Origin: Candidatus Kuenenia stuttgartensis
GTDB lineage: Bacteria; Planctomycetota; Planctomycetia; Pirellulales; UBA1268
DNA: 56,106 nt
Direction: 5' to 3'
NCBI GenBank assembly: GCA_943332855.1
Contig: CALQRA010000003.1
Coordinates: forward strand, 1-56,106
Below the pieces are notes generated by a model that ran no database searches, was not told the origin of the DNA, and saw only the letters and a program-made list of their open reading frames with translations. This document shows positions 5,799 through 50,183 of the stretch, one piece after another. Each line of letters starts with the position of its first letter. Within the stretch, counting starts at the first letter, position 1. A program made the translations under genes and the position numbers.

Positions 5799-6536
5799 TC
5801 AGCTCCCCGAGACGCGCGGATCGTCGATGCCCACAGCCGCGAAGCCGGCGGCGCGGAGCCGGCAGGAATCGCAGTGGCCGCAGGGGCGGCCTGACGCGTC
5901 AGGGTCGTAGCAGCTCGTCGTCAGCCCCTGATCGAGGCCGAGCTCGACACCCAAGGCGACGATCTCGGCCTTCGTGAGGTCGACCAGCGGCGCCACGATC
6001 TCGGGGGCATGCCCCTCGACCCCCGCCTTTGTGGCGAGCGTCGCGAGGTGCCGAAAGGCGTCGAGGAACTCGGGGCGGCAGTCAGGATAGCCGCTGTAAT
6101 CGATGGCGTTGACGCCGACGCCGATCGCCGTCGCGCCGCGGGCCTCGGCGAGGGCCAGGGCGAGGGCGAGAAAGACGGTGTTGCGGGCCGGGACGTAGGT
6201 CGTGGGAATCTCGGCCGCCAGGGCTTCGTCGGGGCGGTCGCGGGGAACGGGGATCGCGGCATCGGTCAGGGCGCTGCCGCCGAAGGCCGCCAGGTCGACC
6301 CGGAGCACGACATGGTCAGTCAGGCCGAGGTGGGAGGCGAGGGCCTTTGCGGCGTCGAGCTCGCAGCGGTGGCGCTGGCCGTAATCGATCGACAGCCCGA
6401 TCACCGCAAAGCCCCGCGCCCGGGCCCAGGCGGCCACCGTCGCCGAATCGAGCCCTCCCGAGAGGAGGACCACCATCGTTCCCCGGGATCTGTTCGGGGG
6501 GGAGGGCAGGACCGCTTTCGGAAGCGGCGCGTTCAT
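5799..6536 (-). CDS. queC: 7-cyano-7-deazaguanine synthase
   Basis: '[12 protein letters not shown]', 'DYGQRH', '[11 protein letters not shown]', '[12 protein letters not shown]', 'TTSCY...CGHCDSC'. Start is ATG 6536 or 6476, not the ORF-track 7109. Confidence 0.95.
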
Positions 6537-6551
6537 GGCACACTCTCTTCT

Positions 6552-6944
6552 ATGACAACACCCATCCACGCCTCGCCTTCCCGCTCGCAACTTGAGGTCT
6601 TCGAAAACCGCTTCCCGGGTCGCGACTACCTCATCGAGATCATCTGTCCGGAGTTCACGTCGGTCTGCCCGAAGACGGGGCAGCCAGACTTCGGCACGCT
6701 CACCTTCCGCTACATCCCCGACAAGGTGTGCGTGGAGCTCAAGAGTTTGAAAGTGTATCTCCAGGCCTTCCGCAACGAAGGGATCTTCTACGAGAACGTC
6801 ACCAACTGCATCCTCGACGACCTCGTGGCGGTCGTCGCACCGCGGCGGATGACCCTCGTGGCCCACTTCACGCCCCGCGGGGGGATCTCGTCGCGGATCG
6901 TCGTCTCGCATCCCTCCGGGGCCGATCTCCCCCCGTCCGTCTGA
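6552..6944 (+). CDS. queF: preQ1 synthase (NADPH-dependent 7-cyano-7-deazaguanine reductase, type 1)
   Basis: '[16 protein letters not shown]', '[24 protein letters not shown]', 'FTPRGGI'; ATG at 6552. Confidence 0.95.
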
Positions 6945-7029
6945 CGCCAGCGGGCTCGGCCCGGGCGCTGTGGCCGACTTCCCTTTGACAGGCTTCCTCG
7001 ATCGCCCCCCTCCCCCGGGAATCCCCGCC

Positions 7030-8046
7030 ATGGCCCAAGCCTGCCCCGTTCTCCTCTCGGCCCTCGCCGACGAATCGGCCTTCGAACTGACGGCCGTCGA
7101 GCAGTTCACGGCGCTCTCGGCGATAGGACTTGAGTATTACTCCCTCCGGTTCATCGACGTCGGCAAGGGGGTGAAGAACGTCATGAAGCTGACGATGACG
7201 GAGATCCAGAAGATCCGGCACCTCGAGGATCGCTACGGGCTCAATGTCGCCTCGATCGCCTCGCCGATCGGCAAGATCAAGCTCGACGACGTCGACGACG
7301 GCACGAAGAACGCCTACGTCCCGTTCAAGACGTACCTCGCCAAGGATGTCGCCCGGGCCTGCGAACTGGCCCATGCCTTCGAGACAAAACTGATCCGCGG
7401 GTTCTCGTTCTATCCTCCCAAGGGGGCGCGGCCCGAGGAGTATCTGGAAGAGGCCGTCGACCGGATCGGCCGGATCGCCGAGGCCTGTCACCGCTCCGAC
7501 CTCACCTTCGGCCTCGAGGTCGAGGCGAATCTCGTCGGCCGCGACGGCCACCTCCTCGCCGAGATCCACCGCCGGGTCAATCACCCCGGCCTCGTCCTCG
7601 TCTTTGATGCCGCCAATCTCGTTGTCCAGGGCTTCTCCACCGCGGAGATCTTCAAGCAGTGGGAAGCGATGAAGCCGGGCCTCGGCTGGGTGCACATCAA
7701 GGATTATCGCAAGGTGGCCGGCAGCACTCGCGGCCGGCATGTCGACGAAGGGGGGCTGTTGAACTTCGTTCCCGCCGACCGCGGGGTCGGGGGCCACGAC
7801 CGGATCCTCGCCGATCTCAAGTCGTTCCTCCCCGCCCTCACCAAGCGACTCGATCGCCGGGGCATCCCCGGAGTGTTTCTCGATCTCGAGCCCCATGTCC
7901 GTGGCGGCGGGCAGTTCGGTGGCACGAGCGGGCCGGACGGAATGGGGATCGCCCTGCGCGGCCTGTGCCGCGTCCTCGACACAGTCAAGATCGCCTACCA
8001 CCTCCGCGACTTCGACGATCTCCTGGCTGTCCGCGGTCCTACCTGA
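7030..8046 (+). CDS. Sugar-phosphate isomerase/epimerase, xylose-isomerase-like TIM barrel (AP_endonuc_2 type)
   Basis: 'LSALADE', 'ASIASPIGK', '[10 protein letters not shown]', 'FGLEVE.NL', 'FDAANL', 'VHIKD', 'DLEPH' metal-ligand pattern. Start 7030 (or GTG 6970). Confidence 0.78.
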
Positions 8047-8063
8047 CGCTCCTCACGGTCCAT

Positions 8064-8089
8064 GGAAAAGTCATCCATGACCTTTTTCC
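8064..8089. repeat. REP-like hairpin with CATCCATG core (copy 1)
   Basis: ggaaaa-GTCAT-cc-ATGAC-ct-ttttcc, 18 nt after the stop at 8046. Confidence 0.6.
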
Positions 8090-8090
8090 G

Positions 8091-8208
8091 CTTGCTTCAA
8101 CTTGCTTCTACTCGCTTCCACTCGCTTCCACTCGCTTCCACTCGCTTCCACTCGCTTCCACTCGCTTCCACTCGCTTCCACTCGCTTCCACTCGCTTCCA
8201 CTCGCTTC
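8091..8208. repeat. 10-bp tandem repeat (CTCGCTTCCA)
   Basis: 9 exact copies at 8111-8200 plus degenerate units at 8091, 8101 and 8201; intergenic. Confidence 0.97.
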
Positions 8209-8310
8209 GGCTTGTGACGCCCCCAGAAAAGCCAAGGTTTTCGGGGGGTGGTCGGCCGCCGCATCGAGCGGCAGACATGTTGTTCACCGCCTGCTAGGGG
8301 CCATCCATCG

Positions 8311-9588
8311 ATGAGCGAATCGACCGAACCGGGCAGTTATTTCATCGCCAACTACCCCCCCTTCTCCGCCTGGACGACCGCCGCGGTCCCGGCGGTCCTC
8401 GAGGCTTTCGCCGCCCCCCCCACTGGCGCGGGCTTGGGCCTCTATCTCCACGTGCCGTTCTGCCGGAAACGGTGCAAGTTCTGCTATTTCCGCGTCTACA
8501 CCGACACCTCGGCCAGCGACGTCGAGCGCTATTCGCAGGGGCTGGCACGCGAGGCGGAGCTCGTCGCCGCGCAGCCCGCCGTCGCCGGCCGCAAGCTCCG
8601 CTACGTCTACTTCGGCGGTGGCACGCCCTCGTTCCTGTCGGTGAAGCAACTCGAGAGGCTCGTCGACGGCCTCCACCGGAGCTTCGGTTGGAGTGATGCC
8701 GAGGAGGTGACGTTTGAATGCGAGCCGGGGACACTGTCGGAGCCGAAGGTGAAAGCCCTCCGTGAGCTGGGGGTGACCCGGCTTTCGCTCGGCGTCGAGA
8801 ACTTCGACGATGGCGTCCTCGAGGTCAACGGCCGGGCCCATCTCAGCGCGGAGATCCTCCGCTGCTGGGAGTGGATCAAGCATGCCGGGTTTCCGAACAC
8901 GAATGTCGATCTGATCTCGGGCATGGTCGGCGAGACATCGGAGAGCTGGGATCGGACGATCGAGCGGACGCTGGCCCTCGAGCCCGACAGTCTGACGATC
9001 TACCAACTCGAGCTCCCTCTGAACACGACGTTTGTCCATGATGCCCGGGAGACCGGGGCACCGACGCCGGTGGCCGACTGGCGCACCAAGCGGGAGTGGG
9101 TCGGAAGGGCGTTCGACCGCTTCGTGGCGGCAGGGTACACGGTGTCGAGCGGCTACACGCTCGTCCGCGATCCCACGCGGGTCCATTTCCGCTACCGCGA
9201 CATGCTCTGGGAGGGGAGCGATCTCCTCGCCCTCGGCGTGGCGAGCTTCGGTCATCTCTCCGGCCGGCACTACCAGAACGCCCCCCACTGGGACGAATAT
9301 CTGGGGGCGGTCGAGGGGGGACGGTTGCCGATCGCCCGAGGGCTCGTTCCCACGGCCCGCGAGCTGTTCATCCGCGAGACCGTCCTCGGCCTCAAGAAGG
9401 GGGCCCTCGACGTCGAACGGCTGCGCGGCAAGTTCGGCGTCGATCCCCTCGAGGCCTTCGCCCCGCAGTGGCGGAGCCTCGAAGAGGAAGGCTGCCTGGA
9501 GCGGGATCGCCCCGCCCCCGTCCTCACGCGCCGGGGGTTGCTCATGGTCGACGCCCTCCTCCCCCGCTTCTTCGACGCCGCCCCGTGA
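8311..9588 (+). CDS. HemN/HemW-like (coproporphyrinogen III oxidase family) radical SAM protein
   Basis: 'LYLHVPFCRKRCKFCYF' (CxxxCxxC), 'YFGGGTPS', 'RLSLGVENFD', 'NVDLISG', 'LLALGVASFGHL'; ATG 8311. Confidence 0.85.
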   Translation: MSESTEPGSYFIANYPPFSAWTTAAVPAVLEAFAAPPTGAGLGLYLHVPFCRKRCKFCYFRVYTDTSASDVERYSQGLAREAELVAAQPAVAGRKLRYVYFGGGTPSFLSVKQLERLVDGLHRSFGWSDAEEVTFECEPGTLSEPKVKALRELGVTRLSLGVENFDDGVLEVNGRAHLSAEILRCWEWIKHAGFPNTNVDLISGMVGETSESWDRTIERTLALEPDSLTIYQLELPLNTTFVHDARETGAPTPVADWRTKREWVGRAFDRFVAAGYTVSSGYTLVRDPTRVHFRYRDMLWEGSDLLALGVASFGHLSGRHYQNAPHWDEYLGAVEGGRLPIARGLVPTARELFIRETVLGLKKGALDVERLRGKFGVDPLEAFAPQWRSLEEEGCLERDRPAPVLTRRGLLMVDALLPRFFDAAP

Positions 9589-9595
9589 CGGTGGG

Positions 9596-9612
9596 CAAAA
9601 GTCATCCATGAC
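9596..9612. repeat. REP-like palindrome GTCATCCATGAC (copy 2)
   Basis: caaaaGTCATCCATGAC just after the stop at 9588; shares AAAAGTCATCCATGACC with the copy at 8066. Confidence 0.6.
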
Positions 9613-9745
9613 CGGCCCCGGCGGCCGGGCAACCGGCGCCCGATTCGGGGGAAAACGGGGTTAACGCCTGCCGTGCCGTCCGGTTTACTCAGGGTAAGGA
9701 GCGCGGCACGCGGGGCCGATCAGGTCCGCTGCTCTCCCCCGACTT

Positions 9746-11641
9746 TTGGGAAAGGTGGCTGTTTCCGTGCCCAATCCCCCCGCTCTCGAGCTTCCCGGGA
9801 TCCCCGTCGATCGACCAGCGACGGCCGGGTATCCGTTGCCCGGCTCTGCACGGCCCGACGGGGGCCGAAGAACGATGAGTTGCCCCGGCGAGAAGGCGCT
9901 TCGCGATCGTCTCCGGGCGATGGCCGCTGACTTGGTGGCGTCGTGGCGGTCGGGGGGCATGCCCTCCGGGGTCCGTTCGGCGGCTGGATTGCGAGCGCAG
10001 GCCGAGTTGCTCTGTCAGCGGGCCGGGGCAGGAGCGGGCGACGTCGGCTGGATGATGGTCACGATCGTCTCCGAGCACTGGCGCGACAGGCTTGCAGCCG
10101 GTTCCAGCGGGCGGCGCCTCCTGCTCCTTCCCGATTGTCCGGTCGCTCCCCGCCTCGCGGCCGATGCCGCCCGCCCGCCACAGGTCTGTGGCCCGGGGTG
10201 TGTGATCGGGACCCTGTGGGGTGCCGCGCGGGAGCAGGGGTGGGTGGTGGAGTCGACACCGCGGGCCGTAGCCGGGATCGGCGGCCTTCTCACGGGCCAG
10301 TACGACGGCATTCTCGGAGTCGCGAGATTGGAGCATCTCGAAAAGGCCTTCGCGATGCTGCCGGCTTTCGCCCTGCCCATCGCCGCGGTTCCGTTCGATC
10401 CCTCGGCCGTGCCGCTCGTTGCCCAGTCGGCGGGCGGGGGAAGTGCCGCCTGTGCCGAAGCGGCCGCCCGATCGGGGCTCGACGCCGAGTGGGTCCTCGG
10501 TCTCCTCGGGGTGGCGGGGGGGCAGACGGCCCCGGTCGCCGATCATCTCCCGCTCCTCCGTGAGGCAGCCGAGCTTTTCCTGCCGGCAGCGCTCCGCTTG
10601 GTCGCGGCGGATGCCAGCGTGCCCGACGCCCTCGACTGGCTGGACGGGCGGCCGGAGCCGCTCATGTCCACGGCCCGCTTCGCGGCCGACTTTCTCGGTC
10701 GCGGAGGAAAGTTCCTCCGTCCCTTCATCACGCTGGCTTCCTTCGAAGCCCTCGCCGGCGCCGAATCGGGCGCGGCGCAGGTGGCCTGCCCCCCCGACCG
10801 TGTCCCCGTCCGCGCCGCGGCGGTGGCCGTCGAGGTGTTCCACAAAGCCTCACTGATCCACGACGACATCGAGGATGCCGACGGCATGCGCTACGGCCGA
10901 TCGGCCCTCCACGAAGAAGTTGGGATCCCGGTCGCCCTGAACACCGGCGACCACCTCGTCGGCCTCGGCTACCGGATCATTGCCACGCTCCCGAACGTCG
11001 ATGCAGCAACCCGTGCCGACCTCGTGGCGATGCTCTCCGATGCCCATCTGCGCCTGGCCCGCGGGCAGGGGGCCGAGTTGTGGTGGCGCGTCGGGCGCGA
11101 CACGCCGCTTTCGGTCCCGGAGGCGCTGTCGATTTATGCCCTCAAGACCTCGCCCGCGTTTGAGGTCGCGCTGTCGATCGGGATCCGACTGGCGGGCGTA
11201 CTCCCCGGGAATGCCGGGGCGGTCGAACGCTATGCCCGGCATGTGGGCGTCGGCTTCCAAGTGCTCAATGATCTGAAGGACTGGCACGGTGACCCGGAAA
11301 ACGCCCGGCAGGCTGCCGGCGACCTCCTCGGAGGGCGACCGACGGTGATGTGGGCCCTCGCCCGGGAGCGGGTCGCGGCCGACGAACTGCGGCGGCTCTC
11401 CCGCCTCGCCGCCGAGGCCCGCCAGCCAGGCGGCCCTTCCGCTGCCGAGGTCATCGCCGAGGCGCGGCGGCTGTATGGCGCAGCCGACGTCTTTGCCCGG
11501 GCCGCGAATATCGTCGATGCCGAGCGCGCAAACGCCCTCGCCGCGGCGGCCACCTGTCGGCAGCCAAGGCTCCGCGAAGTGTTCGAGTTTCTTCTCGACC
11601 TCGCTGTCCCCGAAGGGGCTGCGGCCCAACTCGTCGGCTGA
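9746..11641 (+). CDS. Polyprenyl diphosphate synthase with an N-terminal DUF116-like domain (start uncertain: 9746 or 9875)
   Basis: 'GGKFLRP', first Asp-rich motif 'FHKASLIHDDIEDADGMRYG', 'ALKTSPAF', second motif 'GFQVLNDLKD', 'GDLLGGRPT'. The N-terminal 'RRLLLLPDCP...GILGVARLEHLEK...IAAVP' resembles DUF116. Confidence 0.8.
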   Translation: MGKVAVSVPNPPALELPGIPVDRPATAGYPLPGSARPDGGRRTMSCPGEKALRDRLRAMAADLVASWRSGGMPSGVRSAAGLRAQAELLCQRAGAGAGDVGWMMVTIVSEHWRDRLAAGSSGRRLLLLPDCPVAPRLAADAARPPQVCGPGCVIGTLWGAAREQGWVVESTPRAVAGIGGLLTGQYDGILGVARLEHLEKAFAMLPAFALPIAAVPFDPSAVPLVAQSAGGGSAACAEAAARSGLDAEWVLGLLGVAGGQTAPVADHLPLLREAAELFLPAALRLVAADASVPDALDWLDGRPEPLMSTARFAADFLGRGGKFLRPFITLASFEALAGAESGAAQVACPPDRVPVRAAAVAVEVFHKASLIHDDIEDADGMRYGRSALHEEVGIPVALNTGDHLVGLGYRIIATLPNVDAATRADLVAMLSDAHLRLARGQGAELWWRVGRDTPLSVPEALSIYALKTSPAFEVALSIGIRLAGVLPGNAGAVERYARHVGVGFQVLNDLKDWHGDPENARQAAGDLLGGRPTVMWALARERVAADELRRLSRLAAEARQPGGPSAAEVIAEARRLYGAADVFARAANIVDAERANALAAAATCRQPRLREVFEFLLDLAVPEGAAAQLVG

Positions 11642-39618: not shown

Positions 39619-41181
39619 TCACCCGCGCGAGCGAACAAACGCGATGGCCAGCGCGACCGCGGCGCCGATCCCGGCAAGGAACAAGATCCAAAACAGGATC
39701 GGCAGCCCCTGGAAATGGATGTCAGTCCAGGCGGTCTTGGGCTTCGGCCGCGAAGGCTCCTCGGCGGGAGCGGCCGGCGGGGCCTGCGGGGAAGCCGCAG
39801 GCTTGGCGCGGAGGGGTGGTGATGCTCCGCCGGCCCGCGTCCCCGAGCCCTTCCGTGCCGGGGCCGACGACGTGTCGATGCGTGGCAGGCCCTCGACCCC
39901 GGAACGGTCGGAGCTCTCCTCGCCGGCGCGCCCCGAGTCGGGGAGCGATCCGGAGCCTGGGCCGCTGCCGATCAGCCCCGAGGAGCCGATCGGTCCGGAC
40001 CCACTCTCGGGTCCGCTGCGCACCACCGGGCCGGGTTGCCGGCGTGGCCCCGGCGTGGCTTGGCCCTCGGCGGAGGAACGCCGCGGGGCCCGGCGCGGGG
40101 GATCGATCCGGCCGGAGCGCTGCGGTGCCGGCGTCGAACCGAGCCAGGCGCCCAAGGCGTCGGCGACATCTTGCGCGGTCTGGGGGCGGGCGTCGGGATG
40201 CTTCTCCATCATCCGGAAGTAGAGCTCGGCGATCGCGGTCGGGACGTCTGGCCGTTTCTCGAGGAGATTCGGCGGAGGCTCGTTCATGTGAGCGCGGAGC
40301 CGCTCGGCGAGCGGTCCGGTGGCGAACGGCGCTCTGCCGACAAGGAGAAAGTAGAGGGTGCAGCCGAGGGAGTAGACGTCGCTGCGCCGGTCGGCCTTGT
40401 GGCTGTCGCGGGCCTGTTCCGGCGCCAGGTAATCGGCGGTGCCGAGCACCTTCTCGTCATGCTCGCGCGTCAGGGACGCCCCCTCGTCGCCGTTGGCTAG
40501 GGCCAGCCCCATGTCGAGGATCTTCACCGTCCCCCGCTTGTCGAGCATCAGGTTGGCCGGCTTGATGTCGCGGTGGATGAGCCCCTCGTCGTGGGCGTAC
40601 TGGAGCCCTGTCGCCGCCTGCCGGAGATAGTCCGCCGCCTCGCGGACATCGAGTGGCCCCTCAGCTTTGACCTTGGCGTAGAGATCCATGCCGTCGATGT
40701 ATTCGAGCACGATGAAATGGATCGATCCCGACGACTCAAGGTCGAACGCCCGGGCGATGTTGGGATGGTTGAGCCTGGCGGAGGCCTGCGCCTCCCGCTC
40801 GAAGCGCGCCAGATAGGAGCTCTGGTCGACGCGCTTTACCGGCAGGACCTTGATCGCCACCTTGTGATGGAGGGTGGCGTGTTCGGCGAGGTAAACGCTG
40901 CTCATGCCGCCGGCGCCGAGGAGCCTCAGCAGCTTGTACTTGCCGAGAACGAAGCCCTTGTGGCGCCCCTTGCGGAGCTGATCGACCTGCCACGGCGTCA
41001 GCTGCCCTGACTCGACCAGCACCGTGACGAGCCCCTCCGGGACCGGCTCGCCGCCGAGCGGCCGCCGCCCCTCCGTGTCGGTCCACGGGCTGAGAGCCTG
41101 ATCGATCTTGGCAGGATCGACGAGGCCGCTGGCGCGGAGCACGCGGAGGAAGTCGTCCAGCGTCTGCGAGGAGTCGCTCAT
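39619..41181 (-). CDS. Hanks-type Ser/Thr protein kinase with Pro-rich linker and C-terminal TM anchor
   Basis: 'LGAGGMSSVY', 'VAIK', 'HRDIKPAN', 'DMGLA', 'GTADYLAPE', 'SDVYSLG'; C-terminal hydrophobic helix. Confidence 0.95.
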   Translation of the reverse strand: MSDSSQTLDDFLRVLRASGLVDPAKIDQALSPWTDTEGRRPLGGEPVPEGLVTVLVESGQLTPWQVDQLRKGRHKGFVLGKYKLLRLLGAGGMSSVYLAEHATLHHKVAIKVLPVKRVDQSSYLARFEREAQASARLNHPNIARAFDLESSGSIHFIVLEYIDGMDLYAKVKAEGPLDVREAADYLRQAATGLQYAHDEGLIHRDIKPANLMLDKRGTVKILDMGLALANGDEGASLTREHDEKVLGTADYLAPEQARDSHKADRRSDVYSLGCTLYFLLVGRAPFATGPLAERLRAHMNEPPPNLLEKRPDVPTAIAELYFRMMEKHPDARPQTAQDVADALGAWLGSTPAPQRSGRIDPPRRAPRRSSAEGQATPGPRRQPGPVVRSGPESGSGPIGSSGLIGSGPGSGSLPDSGRAGEESSDRSGVEGLPRIDTSSAPARKGSGTRAGGASPPLRAKPAASPQAPPAAPAEEPSRPKPKTAWTDIHFQGLPILFWILFLAGIGAAVALAIAFVRSRG

Positions 41182-42329: not shown

Positions 42330-44015
42330 ATGGCCGCCATCAACCGCACCAGTTCCCGGATCACGCAGCCCCGCTCGCAGGGCGCCTCGCAGGCCATGCT
42401 CCTCGGCACCGGCCTCCAGCCGGCCGACCTCGACAAGGCCCAGGTCGGGATCGCGAGCATGTGGTACGACGGGAACACCTGCAACATGCATCTCGGTGAG
42501 CTGGCGGCGGTCGTCAAGGAGGGGGTGACGGCTGCCGGCATGGTGGGGATGCGGTTCAACACCATCGGTGTCAGCGACGGGATCTCGATGGGGACCGACG
42601 GGATGAGCTTCTCGCTCCCCTCCCGCGACATCATCGCCGACTCGATCGAGACGGTGATGCAGGCCCAGTGGTACGACGGCATGGTGGCGATCCCCGGCTG
42701 CGACAAGAACATGCCCGGCTGTCTGATCGCGATGGGACGGCTCAATCGGCCGGCGTTGATGGTGTATGGCGGCACGATCCGGGCCGGCCACCTCGCCGAC
42801 GGCACGCCGCTCGACATCGTCTCGGCCTTCCAGTGCTACGGGGAATACGTCTCCGGGCGGATCGACGACACGCGCCGTGCGAGTGTCGTTCGTCAGGCCT
42901 GCCCCGGCGCCGGTGCCTGCGGCGGCATGTATACCGCCAACACCATGGCCACGGCGATCGAGGCCCTCGGCATGTCGCTTCCCGACAGCGCCAGCATCCC
43001 GGCGGTCGATCCAGCCAAGCTCGACGAATGCCGCCGAGCCGGTGCCGCGGTCAAGAACCTCCTCGAGCGTGACATCAAGCCCCGCGACATCATGACCCGC
43101 CGCGCCTTCGAAAACGCGATCGTGGTGACGATGGCCCTTGGCGGCTCGACGAACGCCGTCCTCCACCTCATCGCCATGGCCCGCGCCGTCGACGTCGAGC
43201 TCACGCCGGCCGACTTCCAGGCCGTCGCCCGCCGCATTCCCTACATCGCCGATTTGAAGCCGAGTGGCCGCTATGTCCAGGAGGATCTCCACGCCGTCGG
43301 CGGCACCAGCGGCTTCATGAAATACATGCTCGACAAGGGGCTCCTCGACGGCGACTGCCTCACCTGCACTGGAAAAACGCTGGCCGAGAACCTTGCCACG
43401 AACAAAGGCCTCACGCCGGGGCAGAAGGTGATCCATCCGCTCGAGGAGCCGATCAAGGCGACCGGCCACATCACGATCCTCCAGGGCAACCTCGCCCCCG
43501 GCACCGCCGTCGGGAAGATCACCGGCAAGGAAGGGGCCCGGTTCGAGGGGCCGGCCCGCGTCTTCGACAGCGAGGAGGCGATGCTCGCCGCCCTCGAGCA
43601 TGGAAAGATCCAGCGTGGCGACGTGATCATCATCCGCTATGAGGGGCCCAAGGGGGGCCCGGGGATGCCCGAGATGCTCACGCCGACCTCGGCCCTGATG
43701 GGCGCCGGCATGGGCAACGATGTGGCGCTGATCACCGACGGCCGCTTCTCCGGCGGCTCCCACGGCTTCATCGTTGGGCATGTCGTGCCAGAGGCGCAGG
43801 AAGGGGGAGCGATCGCGCTGGTCCACGATGGCGACATGGTGACGATCGACGGCGACAGCGGCCGCCTCGATGTTGCCGTCTCCGACGCCGATCTCGCCAA
43901 ACGCCGCGCTGCCTGGACCGCGCCGCCGCTGAAAGCCACGCGTGGGATCCTCGCCAAGTACATCCGCTGCGTCGCCCCGGCAAGCGAGGGCTGCGTCACC
44001 GACGAGCCGCGGTGA
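42330..44015 (+). CDS. ilvD: Dihydroxy-acid dehydratase
   Basis: 'CNMHL', 'VSDGISMG', 'PGCDKNMPG', '[16 protein letters not shown]', '[10 protein letters not shown]', 'GPGMPEML', 'TDGRFSG'. Confidence 0.96.
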
Positions 44016-44201
44016 CGGGGGGCGGGTTTCGCCCAATCTTCAGGATTGCGGTGCTGGGATAAGGCCTGTGGGTGGTTCGTCGGCGGGGCCGGCAAAAGTT
44101 TCGTCGTTTCTCGGAGGACCTCGTCACTCCTCAAGCGTTCGCCGATCCCCGCCTCGCCTGCGCGTTGTCAAGAAGCGGCCCGCTGTGACGCTCTGCAGCG
44201 A

Positions 44202-44333
44202 GGGGTCGCCCGTGTTCCGAGAGCCGGCGTAGGATGCGAGCGCAGCCATGGATGGCGGAGCGAAGCAGGCTCCGAGAGAGCGGCGGCCACGAAGGCCGAC
44301 GCGAACGTCCGGCGACGGGGCACGGGCGACCCC
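44202..44333. mobile_element. MITE-like element A (132 bp, 13-bp perfect terminal inverted repeats)
   Basis: GGGGTCGCCCGTG (44202-14) ... CACGGGCGACCCC (44321-33). Contains GCCATGGATGGC at 44245-56, is homologous to 48929-49064, and is flanked by GA on both sides. Confidence 0.65.
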
Positions 44334-44370
44334 GAAGCCACGCTTGAGCCTGAATCGCTCCCGCCCGAGG

Positions 44371-45555
44371 CTATCTCGGTGCTGGCAGCGGGAGCGACTC
44401 GATCGGCACGGGGGGCCCGGGGGCGACGAGGGCGCCGGGGGGGAGTTGGTCGGGGCGGAGGGGGGCTCCGTAGACCGGGCCTGTCGGCAGCGGGGCGGCA
44501 CTCGTCGTGCTGGCAGCCGGGCCGGGGAGCGTGGCGGGGAGGCCGGTGGCGGGATCGGCGGCTTGGTAGGCGGGGCCGGCCTGTGGCACCGGCGCCACGC
44601 CGAGCCGGCCGAGGATTATGCCGAGCATCTTCTGCTCGAGGAGCGGGTCGCGGCCGAGGGGGATCCAGCCGAGGTTCGGCGTCGGATTGGCGACGGGCCG
44701 CGGCTGGTCGCCGACCTGCTGGCCGAGCGTGGGGAGCGGTGTGCCGTAGCGGTAAAGCGAATCGTCGTTGCGAAACGACGCCCCGCCGGCGGTGGCCCGC
44801 ATCGGCCGGGAAAGGTTTTCGAGCTCCTTGAGCACCACCGTCTCGACCCGCCACCCGGATGGATCGGGGATCAGCCGCATTGAGCCCGAGCGGCGGATCG
44901 ACTGGAGCGTCGATTCGAGCCGCTCACGGAAGCCGACCGAATCGCCGCGCCACGGCTCGAGGAGCGTCGCGCCGGTCTGCGGGTAGGTGTCGATCCGCCC
45001 CTCGGCCGGGATGCCATTGGCAAACACGACGCGCTGCTCCGACTGGATCTTGAAGAAGTCGTCCATCGTATCGACCATCTGCTGCCAGACGACCTCGGCA
45101 TCGAGTGGCGGGATGACGACGCTGTTGCTTTGGGTCAGCGGCGGGCCGGACGCGACCTGGCCACCGGGGCCGATGACCGCGCCGGGGGGGAGCGGCGCGA
45201 AGGGGTCGGGGGACGTTGTCGGCGAGGAGAATCCGGGGAACGGGAAGAGGGGCGTCGGCGGCGGCGGGGGGAGCGGCTGTACGATGCCAGGGAGCGTTCC
45301 GGCCGGCACGGTGGCAGCGGGGGGAACGGCTGGAAGAGGCGAGACCATCGGCGCGGGCAATGTCTGGCCGGGGGCTGGGAGTTGGAGCGTGGGGACGACT
45401 GCGCCGTAGGGAGCGGCGGCGGGGGGAAGCGGCGCCTGGGCCAGGACCGTGGGCGACGCGAGCACCATGGCCGTCATGGCCAGCGCCACGGCGAGCGCAG
45501 GGAGGCGCGGAAGGAAGGCAAACAGCCGGTGGGCGGGGCGTGGCATCGGCGGCAT
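44371..45555 (-). CDS. Secreted Pro-rich hypothetical protein with a conserved-looking core domain
   Basis: Signal peptide and Pro/Ala-rich flanks. The core 'WQQMVDTMDDFFKIQSEQRV...EGRIDTYPQTGATLLEPWRGDS...ERLESTLQSIRR' resembles a planctomycete-type family. Confidence 0.7.
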   Translation of the reverse strand: MPPMPRPAHRLFAFLPRLPALAVALAMTAMVLASPTVLAQAPLPPAAAPYGAVVPTLQLPAPGQTLPAPMVSPLPAVPPAATVPAGTLPGIVQPLPPPPPTPLFPFPGFSSPTTSPDPFAPLPPGAVIGPGGQVASGPPLTQSNSVVIPPLDAEVVWQQMVDTMDDFFKIQSEQRVVFANGIPAEGRIDTYPQTGATLLEPWRGDSVGFRERLESTLQSIRRSGSMRLIPDPSGWRVETVVLKELENLSRPMRATAGGASFRNDDSLYRYGTPLPTLGQQVGDQPRPVANPTPNLGWIPLGRDPLLEQKMLGIILGRLGVAPVPQAGPAYQAADPATGLPATLPGPAASTTSAAPLPTGPVYGAPLRPDQLPPGALVAPGPPVPIESLPLPAPR

Positions 45556-45618
45556 CCCGGATTCGCTGCGGTCTTGTGTCCGCAGGGAGCGGGATCGTCG
45601 CGGCGCGGAGCCTGTGGC

Positions 45619-47823
45619 TCAAGCCCAGTTCCGGCCGCGTCGCCGGCGGATCGCACGGATCGCCAGCGCCATTCCAAACCCGATCGCGCAGATCACACCG
45701 AGGCCCAAGCCGGTGGGCACCCAGACCTTTTCGCGGAAAGCCTCGGCGGGGGTGGAGGCCGAACGTGGCTCCGACTCGAGGACCGGAAACCGGGGCGACG
45801 GGGCGGGCTCGGTTGGATGGGAGAGATCCTGGGGCGACGCTGGCCCGAGCTCGGCCTCGGCCTGCGGCAGTGTTGGCTGCAGAGGCAATTCGCGTTTGGT
45901 CGTCATGTCGCGGACCATTGCTTCACGTTGGCTCCCGTTTCTGATGGCCATCACGACCAGGGGAATGGCCAGAGCCCCCGCGATTGCCGCGATCACCAGA
46001 AGACGCATCGCTCGATAGTCGACGCGCGGGCCGGCCCCGTTCCAGCGATCTGACGGTGGACGGCGCCGATCCTTCTGGCCGAGCGCCTCGCCAAACACCC
46101 CGGCGATGCTGTCGGCGTCGCGACCTCGCCCTCCCCTTCCCTGCCGATGGGCGCGGAGGATGGCGCGGACTTCACCGGCGTCGAGGTTGAGCTCGCGGGC
46201 GATATCGGTGACGGTCTGCTCGCCGAGGAGATCGTGGCCACTGGCCTCGAGCGCCGCGGCCCGGTCGAGCACGCCGTCGAAGCGCGCGTCAGCTGCTGCT
46301 CCTCGTTCGCGAGCGGCCGTCGGCGTCGCCCGCCGGTGCCAGGGAGCGGCATCGGGCAGTGGCGGCGGGGCCGCGGGGCCCATCGGGGGCATGAACCGGA
46401 GATCGGTCGTTGCGCCGGCGGCTGCGGGCAGGCCCGCGAGGGTGGCGGCGGCCGATGCGGCCGAGCGGAACCGCTCGGCGGGATCGGGCTTGAGGAGTCT
46501 GTCGAGCCAGGCGGCGACGTCGGCCGGAAGGTCGGGGCACACCGAACCAATCGGCGGGACCGTCTCGGTCGTGATTTTCCGGAGGAGCTTGAGGGGGCTC
46601 GAGGCCGACAGCGGCGGATGACCGGTGAGCATTTCGTGGAGCGTGGCGCCAAGGCTGTAGAGATCGCTCGACGGAGTGGCCTCGTCGCCGAGGGCGACTT
46701 CCGGCGCGAGGTAGGTGAGCGTGCCGAGGAGCGAGCCCGAGGCGGTGAGCGTGTGCTGTCGATCGGGGCTGCGGGCGAGGCCGAAATCGGTGAGCTTGTA
46801 GGTGCCGGCGGCGGGGCCGGTCGTGGCGAGGAGAATGTTTGCCGGCTTGATGTCGCGGTGGACGATCCCCGCCGCGTGGGCGGTGGCGAGCCCGTCGAGG
46901 ACCTGCAGCGCGCAGTCGATCACCGTCGCCGCCGGGATCGCCCCCCTCCCCTTCACCATCTGCTGGAGGCTCGCCCCCGGCACGAGCTCCATCGCCAGGA
47001 ATGGCAGCCTGGCGGCCGGGTCGAACTCATAGATCTGGACGATGTGGGGAGAGGCGAGCGACGCAGCAGCGCGGGCCTCTTCGCCGAAGCGGCCAAGCGC
47101 CCCCGCATCCTCCCCCGGCAGCGGTCGAATCACTTTCACAGCAGCGTCGCGGTGCAGCGCCTCGTCGCGGCCGCGGTAGACCGTCCCCATGCCGCCGCGA
47201 CCGAGCTCGCCAACGATCCGGTAGCGGCCGATGCGTTGCGGGCCGGGGCCCGGGGCGCTCCATGAAGCGGCTCGGTCGAAAGCCCCCGGCACATCGTGGC
47301 GGATCTCGTCAAGCGAGCGGGCGAAACGGCCAAGCGACCGCCGGGCATGATCGGTGTGGAGGAAAGCGGCCAGGCAATAAAGAATCAAACCGGGGGCGAC
47401 GCCGGTGAACAGCGTGGCCAAGACGACGAGGAGTCGGACCGGAGCCACCGGCACATCGAGCCGGGCCGCGAGTCTCCGGCAGACGCCGAGGAGGACGGGC
47501 CCGCGATCGGTCGTAGCGAAGCCTGGAGAGGAGTCTTCGGGGGGGCTGTCAGACCACGACATCACCACCCCCGCGGCAAGATAAAGGAGCACGCCGGGGA
47601 GGATCCCCGTGAACAGCGTGATCAGCGCGACGAGGAACCGGACGCCACGCACGGGGACGTCGAGGCTTCTCGCCAGACGCGCGCAGACGCCGAGGAAGCA
47701 CGAACTCCGTGACGGCGCCAGCGCGACGCCCGCGAGGGCCATCGCCACGGTGGAGATCACCCCGAACGACATCAGGGTGATCGCCCCGACGCCGAAGAGA
47801 ACGAGAAGCTCGAGGATTCCCAT
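45619..47823 (-). CDS. PspC-PspC-Ser/Thr kinase fusion membrane protein
   Basis: Two PspC-like repeats ('FLGVCARLARSLDVPVRGVRFL...PGVLLYL', 'LLGVCRRLAARLDVPVAPVRLL...PGLILYC'), an intact Hanks kinase (GRGGMG, AVK, HRDIKPAN, DFG, APE, SDLYSLG), then two further hydrophobic helices. Confidence 0.88.
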   Translation of the reverse strand: MGILELLVLFGVGAITLMSFGVISTVAMALAGVALAPSRSSCFLGVCARLARSLDVPVRGVRFLVALITLFTGILPGVLLYLAAGVVMSWSDSPPEDSSPGFATTDRGPVLLGVCRRLAARLDVPVAPVRLLVVLATLFTGVAPGLILYCLAAFLHTDHARRSLGRFARSLDEIRHDVPGAFDRAASWSAPGPGPQRIGRYRIVGELGRGGMGTVYRGRDEALHRDAAVKVIRPLPGEDAGALGRFGEEARAAASLASPHIVQIYEFDPAARLPFLAMELVPGASLQQMVKGRGAIPAATVIDCALQVLDGLATAHAAGIVHRDIKPANILLATTGPAAGTYKLTDFGLARSPDRQHTLTASGSLLGTLTYLAPEVALGDEATPSSDLYSLGATLHEMLTGHPPLSASSPLKLLRKITTETVPPIGSVCPDLPADVAAWLDRLLKPDPAERFRSAASAAATLAGLPAAAGATTDLRFMPPMGPAAPPPLPDAAPWHRRATPTAARERGAAADARFDGVLDRAAALEASGHDLLGEQTVTDIARELNLDAGEVRAILRAHRQGRGGRGRDADSIAGVFGEALGQKDRRRPPSDRWNGAGPRVDYRAMRLLVIAAIAGALAIPLVVMAIRNGSQREAMVRDMTTKRELPLQPTLPQAEAELGPASPQDLSHPTEPAPSPRFPVLESEPRSASTPAEAFREKVWVPTGLGLGVICAIGFGMALAIRAIRRRRGRNWA

Positions 47824-47824
47824 G

Positions 47825-48100
47825 TCAGATGCGATCCGTGGTGGCGGGGAGGACGCAGCCGAGGATCAGATACGCCACGAGCCCCGGGCCGATGCCCGAG
47901 AGAAAAATCGCCGCCACGGCGAGGATCCGGACGGCGAGCACCGGCAGCCCCTGCCGGCGGGCCAGCCGCCAGCAGACGCCGAGGCAGCGGGGCCCGGGGC
48001 GCGACGGCCAGGCCGACAGAAGCGCGGGCAGGACGATCGCCGCCACCGCCGCGTAGACGACGATCTCGAAGAAGCCGAACATGCCGAGGAGCGGAGTCAT
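47825..48100 (-). CDS. pspC: PspC-domain membrane protein
   Basis: N-terminal TM helix, then 'CLGVCWRLARRQGLPVLAVRILAV...GIGPGLVAYLILGCVLP'; lies between pspA and the kinase. Confidence 0.75.
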   Translation of the reverse strand: MTPLLGMFGFFEIVVYAAVAAIVLPALLSAWPSRPGPRCLGVCWRLARRQGLPVLAVRILAVAAIFLSGIGPGLVAYLILGCVLPATTDRI

Positions 48101-48157
48101 GGGAGCCTCGTGAAGAGAGGGTGAGCGGAAGGGTTTGGCAGGGAATCGCGGCGCCGG

Positions 48158-48829
48158 TCAGTTCGCCGCCGGTCGCCGCGGTTCCCGCTTCAGCCGAGCC
48201 AATTCCTCCTCGATCGCGTCTGATTCCTTGAGGGCCGCAAACGCCTCCTCGAGCGACGGCTTCTGAAGATCGGGATCGATCTCCTGAAAAGCCTCCATCC
48301 GCTCGATCCGCTGCTCGAGCTGGTCGAACTTCGTCACCGCATCGTACCGGGTGACGCGCTCGATCACTCCCCGGGTGCGCTCGTGCGTCTTGGCACGCTT
48401 GTGCCTCTGGACGAGGAGCCGGTGACGCTGACGGGCATCGACGAGCTTCGCCTCGACCGCGCCGATGTCCTCCTTGTAGCGGGCGACGACCTCGTCACAG
48501 CCAGACACCTCCTTGGCATGGGCGTCGCGGAGTTCCTCGAGCCGGCGCCGCTCGCGGATCGCCTCCCGGGCGAGGTCTTCGCGCCCTTTCTCGATCGCGA
48601 GCCGCGCCCGCTCTTCCCAGGTGGCTGTTCCTGACTCGGCCGTGGCCACGGCCCGCTCGGCCCGCTTCCGGGCGGCGATAGCGCCGGCGCAGTTGGCCTT
48701 CACCTCAACGAGCGTGTCTTCCATCTCCTGGATCATCAGCCGGATCAGCTTGTCGGGATCCTCGGCCGCGTCGAGCATCGAATTGAGGTTGGAGTTGATG
48801 ATGTCCTTGAGTCGCGTGAAGACACCCAT
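48158..48829 (-). CDS. pspA: Phage shock protein A (PspA/IM30)
   Basis: 'MGVFTRLKDIINSNLNSMLDAAEDPDKLIRLMIQEMEDTLVEVK', 'KGREDLAREA', 'KFDQLEQRIERME', 'IEEELARLK'. Confidence 0.95.
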   Translation of the reverse strand: MGVFTRLKDIINSNLNSMLDAAEDPDKLIRLMIQEMEDTLVEVKANCAGAIAARKRAERAVATAESGTATWEERARLAIEKGREDLAREAIRERRRLEELRDAHAKEVSGCDEVVARYKEDIGAVEAKLVDARQRHRLLVQRHKRAKTHERTRGVIERVTRYDAVTKFDQLEQRIERMEAFQEIDPDLQKPSLEEAFAALKESDAIEEELARLKREPRRPAAN

Positions 48830-48876
48830 GGGAAAGGCTCCTGGCCAAGGGGGGGTGGGTTGATGGACGGATGAGA

Positions 48877-48893
48877 TGCACGTGGCGTGCCGA
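48877..48893 (-). promoter_or_regulatory. Sigma54 (-24/-12) promoter of pspA
   Basis: Minus strand TCGGCACGCCACGTGCA = GG-N10-GC, close to the consensus TGGCACG-N4-TTGC; 48 nt above the pspA ATG and adjacent to a divergent bEBP gene. Confidence 0.85.
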
Positions 48894-48928
48894 AGGCGTG
48901 TCGGGGAGTCGCTGTCTGGCGGACGGTC

Positions 48929-49064
48929 GGGGGGACGCCCCTGCGCCTCGCCGGACGCTCGCTTCGGCCATCCATGGCTTCTCGCTCGCTCGACGCCGGC
49001 CGCGCTTCGCCCTCCTATCCTGCGCTTGCCGACGGCGCCGCCTCGGCTGCAGGGACGTCCCCCC
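48929..49064. mobile_element. MITE-like element B (136 bp, 16-bp terminal inverted repeats with 1 mismatch)
   Basis: GGGGGGACGCCCCTGC ... GCAGGGACGTCCCCCC. Contains GCCATCCATGGC, its left ~50 nt align with the reverse complement of element A, and it is flanked by TC on both sides. Confidence 0.65.
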
Positions 49065-49100
49065 TCCCTGGCAACACGAAGAAGTGGAAAGAGAACTGTG

Positions 49101-49154
49101 TGGTTAAAATTGCCAGGTATGGCAGAATATGCCTTGGATTGGTTTTTATGACCT
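49101..49154. promoter_or_regulatory. Three candidate PspF upstream activator sites
   Basis: TGGTTAAAATTGCCA (49101), TGGCAGAATATGCCT (49120) and TGGTTTTTATGACCT (49140): all TGG-N9-CCW with AT-rich cores, spaced 19-20 bp. Confidence 0.65.
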
Positions 49155-49175
49155 TTTTTCCCGGGGAGTGCTCTC

Positions 49176-50183
49176 TTGCGTGTCGAAGAGGCGATCGGTC
49201 GCTCGGAAGCGTTCCTGGCGTTCACGGAGCGGCTCTCCCGGGCCGCGGCCGTCGATCGGCCGGTCCTGCTGATTGGCGAGCGGGGGACCGGCAAGGAGCT
49301 GGCAGCGGCCAAGCTTCACTACCTCTCGCGGCGCTGGGAGGGGCCCTTGGTGGCCCTCAATTGCGCGGCGCTGGTGCCGGCGCTGGTCGAGGCGGAGCTC
49401 TTCGGGCACGAACAGGGGGCGTTCACCGGCGCCACCCGGGAGCGGGCGGGGAGGTTTGAGGCGGCCGATGGCGGCACGCTCCTCCTCGACGAAATAGGCC
49501 TGGTGCCACTCGAGGCCCAGGAAAAGCTCCTCCGGGTCGTGGAGTATGGCACGTTCGAGCGGGTGGGGAGCTCGCGGCCGATGCGGGTCGACGTCCGCAT
49601 CGTCGCCGCCACCAACGCCGATCTCCCCGCCCTCGCCCGGGCCGGGCGTTTCAAAGAGGATCTCCTCGACCGGCTGTCGTTCGAGGTCCTCCGTGTGCCG
49701 CCGCTCCGCGAGCGGCGGGAAGACATTGCCATCCTCGCCAGGCACTTCGCCGGCCGGATGGGGCGCGAGGTCGGGGGTGATGCGGCGCCGGAGCTCACCC
49801 CTGAGGCGCGCGCGAAGCTCGACGCCCACCCTTGGCCGGGCAACATCCGCGAACTCAAAAACGTTGTCGAGCGGGCGGTTCACCGGGCCGACGGGGGGCC
49901 GGTGGGCGCCGACTCCGTCGACTTCGATCCCTTTCGGCGCCCCGGTGAGCCGGTCGCCGGGCCAACCAGTGGCCCTTCTTCAGTCGATCCGCCGGCGGTG
50001 CCAGGCCGCCCCACGCTCCCATCGTCGCTGCCCGAGGCGGTCGCCAGTCTCGAGATCGAGGCCCTCCGGGGCGCCCTCCGGGCCACCCGTCACCATCAGC
50101 GGAAGGCGGCCGCGCTCCTCGGCCTCAGCTACCATCAGTTTCGTGGCCTGTTCCGCAAGCATGCGGCGCAGCTCGAGGAATGA
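49176..50183 (+). CDS. pspF: Psp operon transcriptional activator (sigma54 bEBP lacking a receiver domain)
   Basis: '[11 protein letters not shown]', '[15 protein letters not shown]', 'LLLDEIG', '[14 protein letters not shown]', PspF-type HTH '[19 protein letters not shown]'; no N-terminal sensor; divergent from pspA. Confidence 0.93.

Follow-up and report, generated by a model that had tools for sequence, protein, structure and literature searches.

A Hanks-type serine/threonine kinase with two PspC domains is encoded in a sigma54/PspF-type psp operon of a planctomycete

Contig CALQRA010000003.1 of Candidatus Kuenenia stuttgartensis (GenBank assembly GCA_943332855.1; Planctomycetota, Pirellulales in GTDB), of which positions 1 to 56,106 are hereafter called the window, harbors a gene (45619..47823(-)) encoding a 734-aa protein in which two PspC domains are followed by a Hanks-type Ser/Thr kinase domain. 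The reading frame is open over its whole length, and the N-termini of homologues agree with the ATG used here. The gene is the third of a phage shock protein (psp) operon comprising a sigma54-type box, pspA, a gene for a 91-aa stand-alone PspC and the kinase gene, with pspF in divergent orientation, and this placement inside a sigma54/PspF psp operon is the most informative fact on the kinase gene. On balance, we favor a reading in which the encoded protein is a membrane-embedded Hanks kinase that converts membrane stress sensed by PspC into Ser/Thr phosphorylation. The architecture of the protein and its genetic context are solid, and the function that we infer is well motivated.

The genes surrounding the kinase gene define the locus as a psp operon. 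The pspA gene (48158..48829(-)) encodes a 223-aa protein that matches PspA_IM30 (E 3e-40) and shares 42% identity with E. coli PspA, although its TIGR02977 score (236.7 bits) falls just below the cut-off of 242.95. About 50 nt upstream of pspA lies a sigma54-type -24/-12 element, GGCACGccacgTGCA (48877..48891(-); GGCACG-N5-TGCA). This is the single match in the whole window, against 0.22 expected, and at least one match arose in 20 of 100 shuffles, so that the motif match taken alone is modest evidence. Every relative examined carries a GGCAC -24-like element ahead of pspA (L007:3854-3984, L104:4843-4973, L004:7116-7246 and L008:4823-4953), with a GG-N10-GC arrangement in L004 and L008 and a GG-N10-GT arrangement, with a less canonical -12 element, in L007 and L104, the loci with single-PspC kinases. 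The divergent pspF gene (49176..50183(+)) encodes a 335-aa sigma54 activator composed, according to Pfam, of an AAA+ domain that starts at residue 7 and an HTH_8 domain, with neither a receiver nor an FHA domain. The protein passes the TIGR02974 equivalog cut-off (443.8 bits versus 443.55) and is 51% identical to E. coli PspF. The Trp residue aligned to Trp56 of E. coli PspF, which we take to be the residue contacting PspA, is invariant in PspF.

Between pspA and the kinase gene, a 91-aa stand-alone PspC (47825..48100(-); Pfam PspC, 31.1 bits) is encoded that consists of a transmembrane (TM) helix, TM0, and a PspC domain with no C-terminal tail. Its stop codon is separated from the kinase ATG by 1 nt. 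The possibility that both genes represent one gene split by a frameshift was considered and rejected, given that the two-gene form is conserved in the related loci L006 and L008. A six-frame scan of the source genome (4.9 Mb, 91% complete, 361 contigs, two PspA-family genes) identified only three PspC domains, all of them at this psp locus, and the same 91%-complete genome yielded no match to PspB (PF06667) at E <= 0.1. An uninformative scan of positions 44000-49300 returned no sigma70-like promoter and a few terminator-like hairpins, located inside coding sequence at approximately the rate expected by chance.

The 734-aa protein is composed, in order, of an N-terminal TM helix, two PspC domains, the Hanks kinase domain, a three-helix module, a TM helix, a disordered loop of ~75 aa, a second C-terminal TM helix and an Arg-rich tail. 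TM0 (residues ~3-34; 47722..47817(-)) is supported by hydropathy and by a helix spanning residues 3-34 in an AlphaFold2 model. Its uncharged N-tail is predicted to face outward, and the number of Lys and Arg residues (K+R) in this tail is zero in all relatives. The first PspC domain (residues ~40-89; 47557..47706(-)) consists of a head that is basic and amphipathic and, after it, a core of 27 aa centred on TGILPG; the second (residues ~107-157; 47353..47505(-)), with its best Pfam stretch at 107-155, is also supported by the genome scan and the repeat alignment. The PspC profile (PF04024) matches the protein in two stretches with 50.3 bits, above the gathering cut-off of 25, and in the six-frame genome scan the two domains scored singly 31.6 and 37.7 bits, at 47560-47709 and 47359-47505. 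Furthermore, the repeats at residues 38-92 and 105-160 align to each other with a score of 135, compared to 25.5±5.5 for shuffled controls (z ~20). Both repeats retain the hallmarks of the domain (GVC at residues 45 and 113, VR at 61-62 and 129-130, and core centres TGILPG and TGVAPG), and alignment with E. coli PspC shows no variation at the G, V, C, V and R of the PspC motif. In contrast, neither the kinase (57.3 bits) nor the 91-aa protein (30.5 bits) reaches the cut-off of 104 for TIGR02978, the equivalog family of E. coli PspC, which indicates that the kinase shares a domain with PspC proper but is not its orthologue.

The kinase domain (residues ~198-455; 46459..47232(-)) was delimited by Pfam, invariant motifs and Foldseek. 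Its match to Pkinase (PF00069) covers residues 201-453 (E 1.6e-44, 152.8 bits versus a gathering cut-off of 31.7) and its catalytic set is complete, comprising the glycine-rich loop (208-213), K230, E249, H322-R323-D324, N329, D346-F347-G348 and A373-P374-E375. All Hanks catalytic motifs are invariant over 54 relatives. The AlphaFold2 model, which was built on these 54 relatives, has a mean predicted local distance difference test score (pLDDT) of 65.6, with a confident kinase core (mostly >85). The modelled kinase fold is bilobal and, in Foldseek comparisons, superposes on PknB, PknA and Stk1 with target-normalised TM-scores of 0.83-0.86 (E ~1e-17, 33-38% identity), the identity to PknB and PknA being 36-38%. 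The protein does not pass the profile for PASTA kinases (NF033483, 268.7 bits versus a cut-off of 450), which matches its kinase part only. Pfam returned no match in the protein to PASTA repeats, nor to the HisKA and HATPase_c domains of histidine kinases.

Downstream of the kinase domain, the three-helix module (residues 508-566; 46126..46302(-)) is conserved, gives marginal helix-turn-helix (HTH)-like matches and is modelled as three helices with a pLDDT of 84. It is followed by the first C-terminal TM helix (residues ~603-631; 45931..46017(-)), whose position is conserved, by a poorly conserved loop rich in Pro, Ala, Ser and Glu (residues ~632-703; 45715..45930(-)), predicted from composition and pLDDT to be extracytoplasmic and disordered, and by the second C-terminal TM helix (residues ~704-726) with the Arg-rich tail ending in RNWA (45622..45714(-)), which are supported by hydropathy, the AlphaFold2 model and conservation. 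Kyte-Doolittle analysis revealed hydrophobic segments at residues 1-38, 60-91, 120-157, 603-631 (peak 2.77) and 700-726 (peak 2.05). The AlphaFold2 helices span residues 3-34, 43-54, 58-90, 110-122, 126-155, 158-175, 603-635 and 705-727, and pLDDT values below 50 are found at residues 92-110, 479-532 and most of 639-704 (639-669, 678-690 and 698-704). As a separate observation, the basic C-terminal tail (45622-45660(-)), exemplified by RRRRGRNWA, may constitute a binding motif. An initial annotation of this DNA, made from the letters alone, had proposed two similar PspC-like repeats, a catalytically complete kinase starting near residue 198 and two additional hydrophobic helices. The two Pfam stretches and the repeat alignment, the Pkinase match with its invariant motifs, and the agreement between hydropathy and modelled helices at 603-631 and 700-726 bear out these three proposals. 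For the kinase gene, the annotation made no mention of the surrounding psp operon.

The architecture is not a peculiarity of a single assembly. Relatives were sought among 5.8 billion proteins, and proteins of 713-754 aa with the same full architecture and 48-88% identity were found in many independent metagenome assemblies (ENA, JGI, NCBI and Logan). Some of the relatives are automatically annotated as 'serine/threonine protein kinase/phage shock protein PspC'. In the 401 Planctomycetota genomes sampled, full-length matches to the family profile were confined to the source genus. A search over the genome contigs with motifs back-translated from the kinase alignment recovered 80 loci, all of them unrelated kinases, the patterns being generic. 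The possibility that the fusion stems from an assembly error or from frames joined by a frameshift, or that the gene is a pseudogene in decay, could be entertained on the grounds that the source metagenome-assembled genome is fragmented into 361 contigs, but it is rendered extremely remote by the recurrence of the architecture in independent assemblies, by the open frame and by the invariance of every catalytic residue.

Sorting the 54 relatives by motifs and hydropathy defined three classes: class A, with the TM-PspC-PspC-kinase-module-TM-loop-TM arrangement and a basic tail; class B, with a TM-PspC-kinase-module-TM arrangement; and class C, with a kinase-module-multi-TM arrangement and no PspC domain. 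The position of the C-terminal TM segments is kept in all 15 full-length double-PspC relatives, the sixteenth (P0028) ending with its contig. Of these 15 full-length class A members, 13 have a tail terminating in (N/K)W(P/A/H) and two a tail with a different end, that of P0028 being cut by the contig end. The order of the operon, with pspF divergent from pspA, an optional pspC and the kinase gene, is conserved in class A loci at 59% (L004/L005), 87% (L006) and 51% (L008) kinase identity, as well as in the class B loci L007 and L104. At L104, two paralogous kinase genes, one of class C and one of class B, lie in tandem behind pspA and pspC (6178-8001 and 8001-9818), with overlapping stop and start codons. 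Sister forms with one PspC domain or none therefore also sit in psp operons.

The stand-alone PspC proteins differ between these classes. Those encoded in class B loci are 118-124 aa long and carry a coiled-coil-like tail that aligns to the C-terminal region of E. coli PspC, whereas those of class A loci are 91 aa long and end directly after the membrane core. With neither a PspC tail nor PspB, the class A lineage retains the kinase as its only PspC-domain protein with an attached part. This agrees with the suggestion of the initial annotation that the kinase occupies the place of the C-terminal tail of PspC. In the relative from L004 (59% identity), the gene for the 91-aa PspC is missing and the kinase (L004:8001-10154) starts with MTTLLGML, which corresponds to the start of the small PspC, and continues with its own kinase N-terminus; this looks as if the small pspC gene had been cleanly deleted in frame.

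The side of the membrane on which each part of the protein resides can be predicted from the distribution of charges and from comparison across the family. Kinases require ATP and the kinase domain must therefore be cytoplasmic. Eight K+R precede the TM helix at residues 603-631 and six lie in the tail after the helix at 700-726, which fits a C-terminal hairpin with an in-out-in topology and an external, disordered loop. The initial annotation had envisaged a cytoplasmic kinase tethered to the membrane at both ends. The basic flanks of the C-terminal hairpin, the positive-inside counts, the hydropathy peaks and modelled helices of its two TM segments, and their conserved positions in the relatives all uphold this proposal.

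The PspC core comprises 27 residues with an invariant (T/S)G-x-x-PG centre. In all 28 class B proteins, the N-tail has no K+R, whereas the loop between TM0 and the PspC core holds 3-8 K+R (mean 5.8) and on average 0.5 Asp and Glu residues (D+E), and the positive-inside rule hence indicates that the PspC head is cytoplasmic. Together with a cytoplasmic kinase, this implies that the 27-residue core enters and leaves on the cytoplasmic side. The same location of the head is suggested independently by fusions of the reverse order, identified in eight other planctomycete genomes, in which a kinase is followed by a PspC head and the head is hence placed beside the kinase. The existence of both fusion orders, PspC-kinase and kinase-PspC, argues for a PspC domain with its two ends in the cytoplasm. 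In passages of Ravi et al. (PMC11237479), PspC is described as a two-helix domain, and a polytopic topology is cited for Yersinia PspC; both are in agreement with cytoplasmic ends. Taken together, these data favor a re-entrant, in-in hairpin as the most likely form of the PspC core.

Several observations weigh against a re-entrant core. The AlphaFold2 model predicts the first PspC core as one continuous helix (58-90, 33 residues) instead of a hairpin, even though the PspC regions are modelled with only moderate confidence (pLDDT 56-86), and the loop between the two cores of double-PspC proteins is charge-neutral (K+R 5.75 versus D+E 5.0). Each core might instead cross the membrane once, in which case the loop joining the repeats and the second PspC head would be periplasmic and the two PspC domains antiparallel. 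With 27 residues, a core has sufficient length to do so, the acidic stretch at residues 90-104 (0 K+R, 3 D+E) looks extracytoplasmic and, if the double-PspC protein is considered by itself, cores that cross once would likewise keep the kinase inside. In the single-PspC relatives, however, the same arrangement would leave either the kinase or the loop carrying +3 to +8 charges outside, and a differing topology is improbable for homologous domains. The head of the second PspC domain bears 4-6 K+R, and in the reverse-order fusions the head lies next to a cytoplasmic kinase. We thus regard a single-pass topology of the PspC cores as unlikely.

The fusions of reverse order also bear on the wider distribution of PspC-linked kinases. 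PspC domains were present in 31 of the 301 Planctomycetota genomes sampled for this purpose, and, of 13 long frames with PspC that were inspected, eight (L105, L106, L109-L112, L114 and L116) encode a kinase followed by PspC. Like the class A kinases, these (Zn-ribbon)-kinase-PspC(-PspC)-multi-TM proteins join one or two PspC domains to a Hanks kinase in one polypeptide within the same phylum, but in the opposite order. Two PspC-like motifs are found in three of the eight, with two stretches recognized by Pfam in L105 only, and one protein carries a PDZ domain. No pspA gene was found within ±3 kb of the reverse-order fusion genes. Their kinase domains are 28-40% identical to that of the 734-aa kinase, compared to 40-49% for unrelated kinases with no PspC domain, which indicates that PspC and kinase domains have been joined independently and more than once.

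In two cases, from two other Planctomycetota families, the reverse-order genes adjoin genes for sigma54 activators that, unlike the PspF of the operon studied here, contain an FHA domain. The Zn-ribbon-kinase-PspC gene at L109:2692-4371(-) lies next to a gene encoding FHA, Sigma54_activat and HTH_8 domains (L109:4401-5801(-)), and that at L114:1935-4229(-) next to a gene with the same domains (L114:213-1922(-)). By analogy, these pairs look like a pathway in which PspC would act on a Hanks kinase, and the resulting phosphothreonine would be read by an FHA activator of sigma54-dependent transcription. Such neighbors in other planctomycetes lend support to PspC-kinase-sigma54 signalling in the phylum. 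The source genome contains 12 strong matches to sigma54 activators, one of which has an FHA domain in an 808-aa open frame on another contig (G000:C2:74699-76153(-)), and this activator, which may respond to phosphothreonine, is a possible alternative target of the kinase.

The second membrane anchor of the 734-aa kinase finds its best explanation in the history of the post-kinase module. The module is very rare: of 1.84e9 representatives searched with its profile, 51 clusters matched at E <= 1e-3, and those full-length matches that were checked are kinases. Ten of the matches were scanned with Pfam and six of these have an intact or partial kinase domain, which the module follows in every case; five of the six further contain CsgG/LpoB-like, FecR_C/STN or Laminin_G domains beyond the module. 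Since the module kinases carry such ectodomain-type domains, the module and the C-terminal anchor appear to belong to a small clade of conventional PknB-like kinases. The C-terminal anchor was probably inherited, and the TM-PspC unit added at the N-terminus. The ancestor is best explained as a canonical kinase-module-TM-ectodomain kinase, a history that would account for the double tether. The module itself was not labelled a DNA-binding domain, its HTH-like matches being sub-threshold or marginal: HTH_Tnp_ISL3 in Pfam scored 18.9 bits (threshold 27.4), comparison of its profile to PDB sequences gave E values of 0.008-0.16 within a 20-residue HTH stretch only, and the best Foldseek matches, to the DeoR DNA-binding domain and to homeodomains, all had E > 1.

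This history explains anchoring at both ends without a purpose-built mechanical ruler, the mechanism put forward in the initial annotation, in which double anchoring would let the kinase sense bilayer deformation or the distance between anchors. Both anchors are real and conserved in double-PspC and single-PspC forms, and partly disordered linkers of ~40 and ~150 residues join the kinase to them, as a ruler would have it. The C-terminal anchor and module, however, are common to ordinary kinases with no N-terminal anchor and hence probably inherited, neither the linkers nor the external loop is well conserved or constant in length, and the C-terminal part ranges from one TM segment to many within the family. 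A ruler mechanism consequently appears very improbable.

We propose that membrane stress would alter the conformation or the association of the PspC hairpins, probably jointly with the co-translated 91-aa PspC, bringing kinase domains together and leading to autophosphorylation of the activation loop, as in PknB; T358, T360, S362, S364, T368 and T370 are candidate residues for it. The active kinase would then phosphorylate cytoplasmic targets, the prime candidates being PspA and PspF, which are encoded at the same locus. The kinase would thereby replace both PspB and the PspA-binding tail of PspC known from enterobacteria, which are missing at this locus. Placed downstream of the psp promoter, the kinase gene would also be induced by stress, in a feed-forward arrangement.

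Some of our results weigh against a role of the kinase in the Psp response. No lineage-specific Ser/Thr site was found in the PspA proteins of kinase-linked operons when aligned to E. coli PspA. PspF carries no FHA domain, so that the FHA route of other lineages is not directly applicable to it, and the genome encodes dozens of other kinases, gene linkage being the only ground for specificity towards Psp targets. PspC might do no more than localise a general-purpose kinase to the membrane, or to assemblies of PspA and PspC, where it would respond to other cues and act on targets unrelated to Psp, such as those of envelope growth or division, in the manner of PknB. Such a role in localisation only would suit a kinase domain that is closest to PknB and PknA, the existence of class C sister forms without any PspC, the ~50 kinase candidates seen at first look in the genome and the absence of a candidate substrate site from the PspA alignment. 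It is harder to reconcile with the finding that even the PspC-less sister kinase examined (L104) lies in a psp operon, with the conservation of the linkage to pspF and pspA down to ~50% identity, with the location of every PspC domain of the genome at the psp locus, and with the independent recurrence of PspC-input kinases in the phylum, twice beside FHA-sigma54 activators. Localisation alone is, in our assessment, a rather unlikely account of the fusion. The conversion of PspC-sensed stress into Ser/Thr phosphorylation hence remains the reading that we prefer. A more ambitious version, in which a Hanks kinase switches the Psp response through phosphorylation of PspA or PspF, which would be the first such case, and in which the two fusion orders amount to genetic proof of an in-in PspC hairpin, can be put forward only tentatively.

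Two further genes in the vicinity deserve mention. Downstream of the kinase gene, after a gap of 63 nt, a co-oriented gene (44371..45555(-)) encodes a Pro-rich 394-aa protein whose N-terminus, by eye, is hydrophobic and resembles a signal peptide; the gene may be the final one of the operon. The protein is conserved in synteny, with 71% identity to its L004 orthologue versus 59% for the kinase, and its central ~170 aa are strongly conserved, but it has no match in Pfam, NCBIfam or PDB. A second Hanks kinase gene, encoding 520 aa (39619-41181(-)), lies ~4.4 kb away, past ilvD and genes for a HAD hydrolase and a glutaredoxin-like protein, and its position is kept in L004 and L006.

The sensing of stress by PspC and the relay of the resulting signal are unsettled questions, usually studied through partner switching in enterobacteria, and a natural fusion of PspC to an enzyme offers a readable reporter of PspC activation. 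In the literature searched, no paper joins the terms 'PspC domain' and 'threonine kinase' or describes a fusion of PspC to a Hanks kinase, and none addresses PspA in connection with Hanks-type kinases or FHA-sigma54 activators in Planctomycetes. Two large surveys of Psp systems (PMC9239133 and PMC11237479) mention, in their matching passages, fusions to histidine kinases only. The architecture described here suggests that planctomycetes report membrane damage by protein phosphorylation, which would extend Psp regulation to Hanks-type signalling. Along with the pairs of kinase-PspC and FHA-sigma54 genes of other planctomycetes, it suggests that PspC serves across the phylum as the input to a Ser/Thr phosphorylation that in turn acts on sigma54-dependent transcription. 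Moreover, the occurrence of PspC both before and after kinases bears on the disputed topology of PspC, as the two positions together demand that the domain start and finish in the cytoplasm.

Compared to the enterobacterial Psp system (pspF and pspABCDE of E. coli and Yersinia), the planctomycete locus shares a divergent PspF with no regulatory domain, a sigma54 box, PspA and PspC proteins encoded downstream of pspA. It differs in that the genome has neither PspB nor a PspC bearing a coiled-coil C-terminal tail, and in that the locus presents a Hanks kinase after PspC, a tandem PspC duplication and a third PspC as a separate gene. The use of an N-terminal PspC domain as the membrane input of a signalling kinase is shared with the PspC-input histidine kinases of actinobacteria, which passages of the two surveys (PMC9239133 and PMC11237479) exemplify with the three-component envelope-stress system of Corynebacterium glutamicum. 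The output of the planctomycete protein, however, is a eukaryote-like Ser/Thr kinase instead of HisKA/HATPase, and its gene lies in a PspF/PspA operon, whereas the actinobacterial genes sit with a response regulator. These differences in output and operon place the 734-aa kinase outside the PspC-histidine-kinase group, from which it is also distinguished by its second, C-terminal anchor. With PknB, PknA and Stk1, finally, it shares the kinase fold, the catalytic motifs and the kinase-juxtamembrane-TM order of its C-terminal half, but it lacks PASTA repeats or any other folded ectodomain, and its putative sensor is N-terminal and intramembrane, with the kinase domain internal to the polypeptide.

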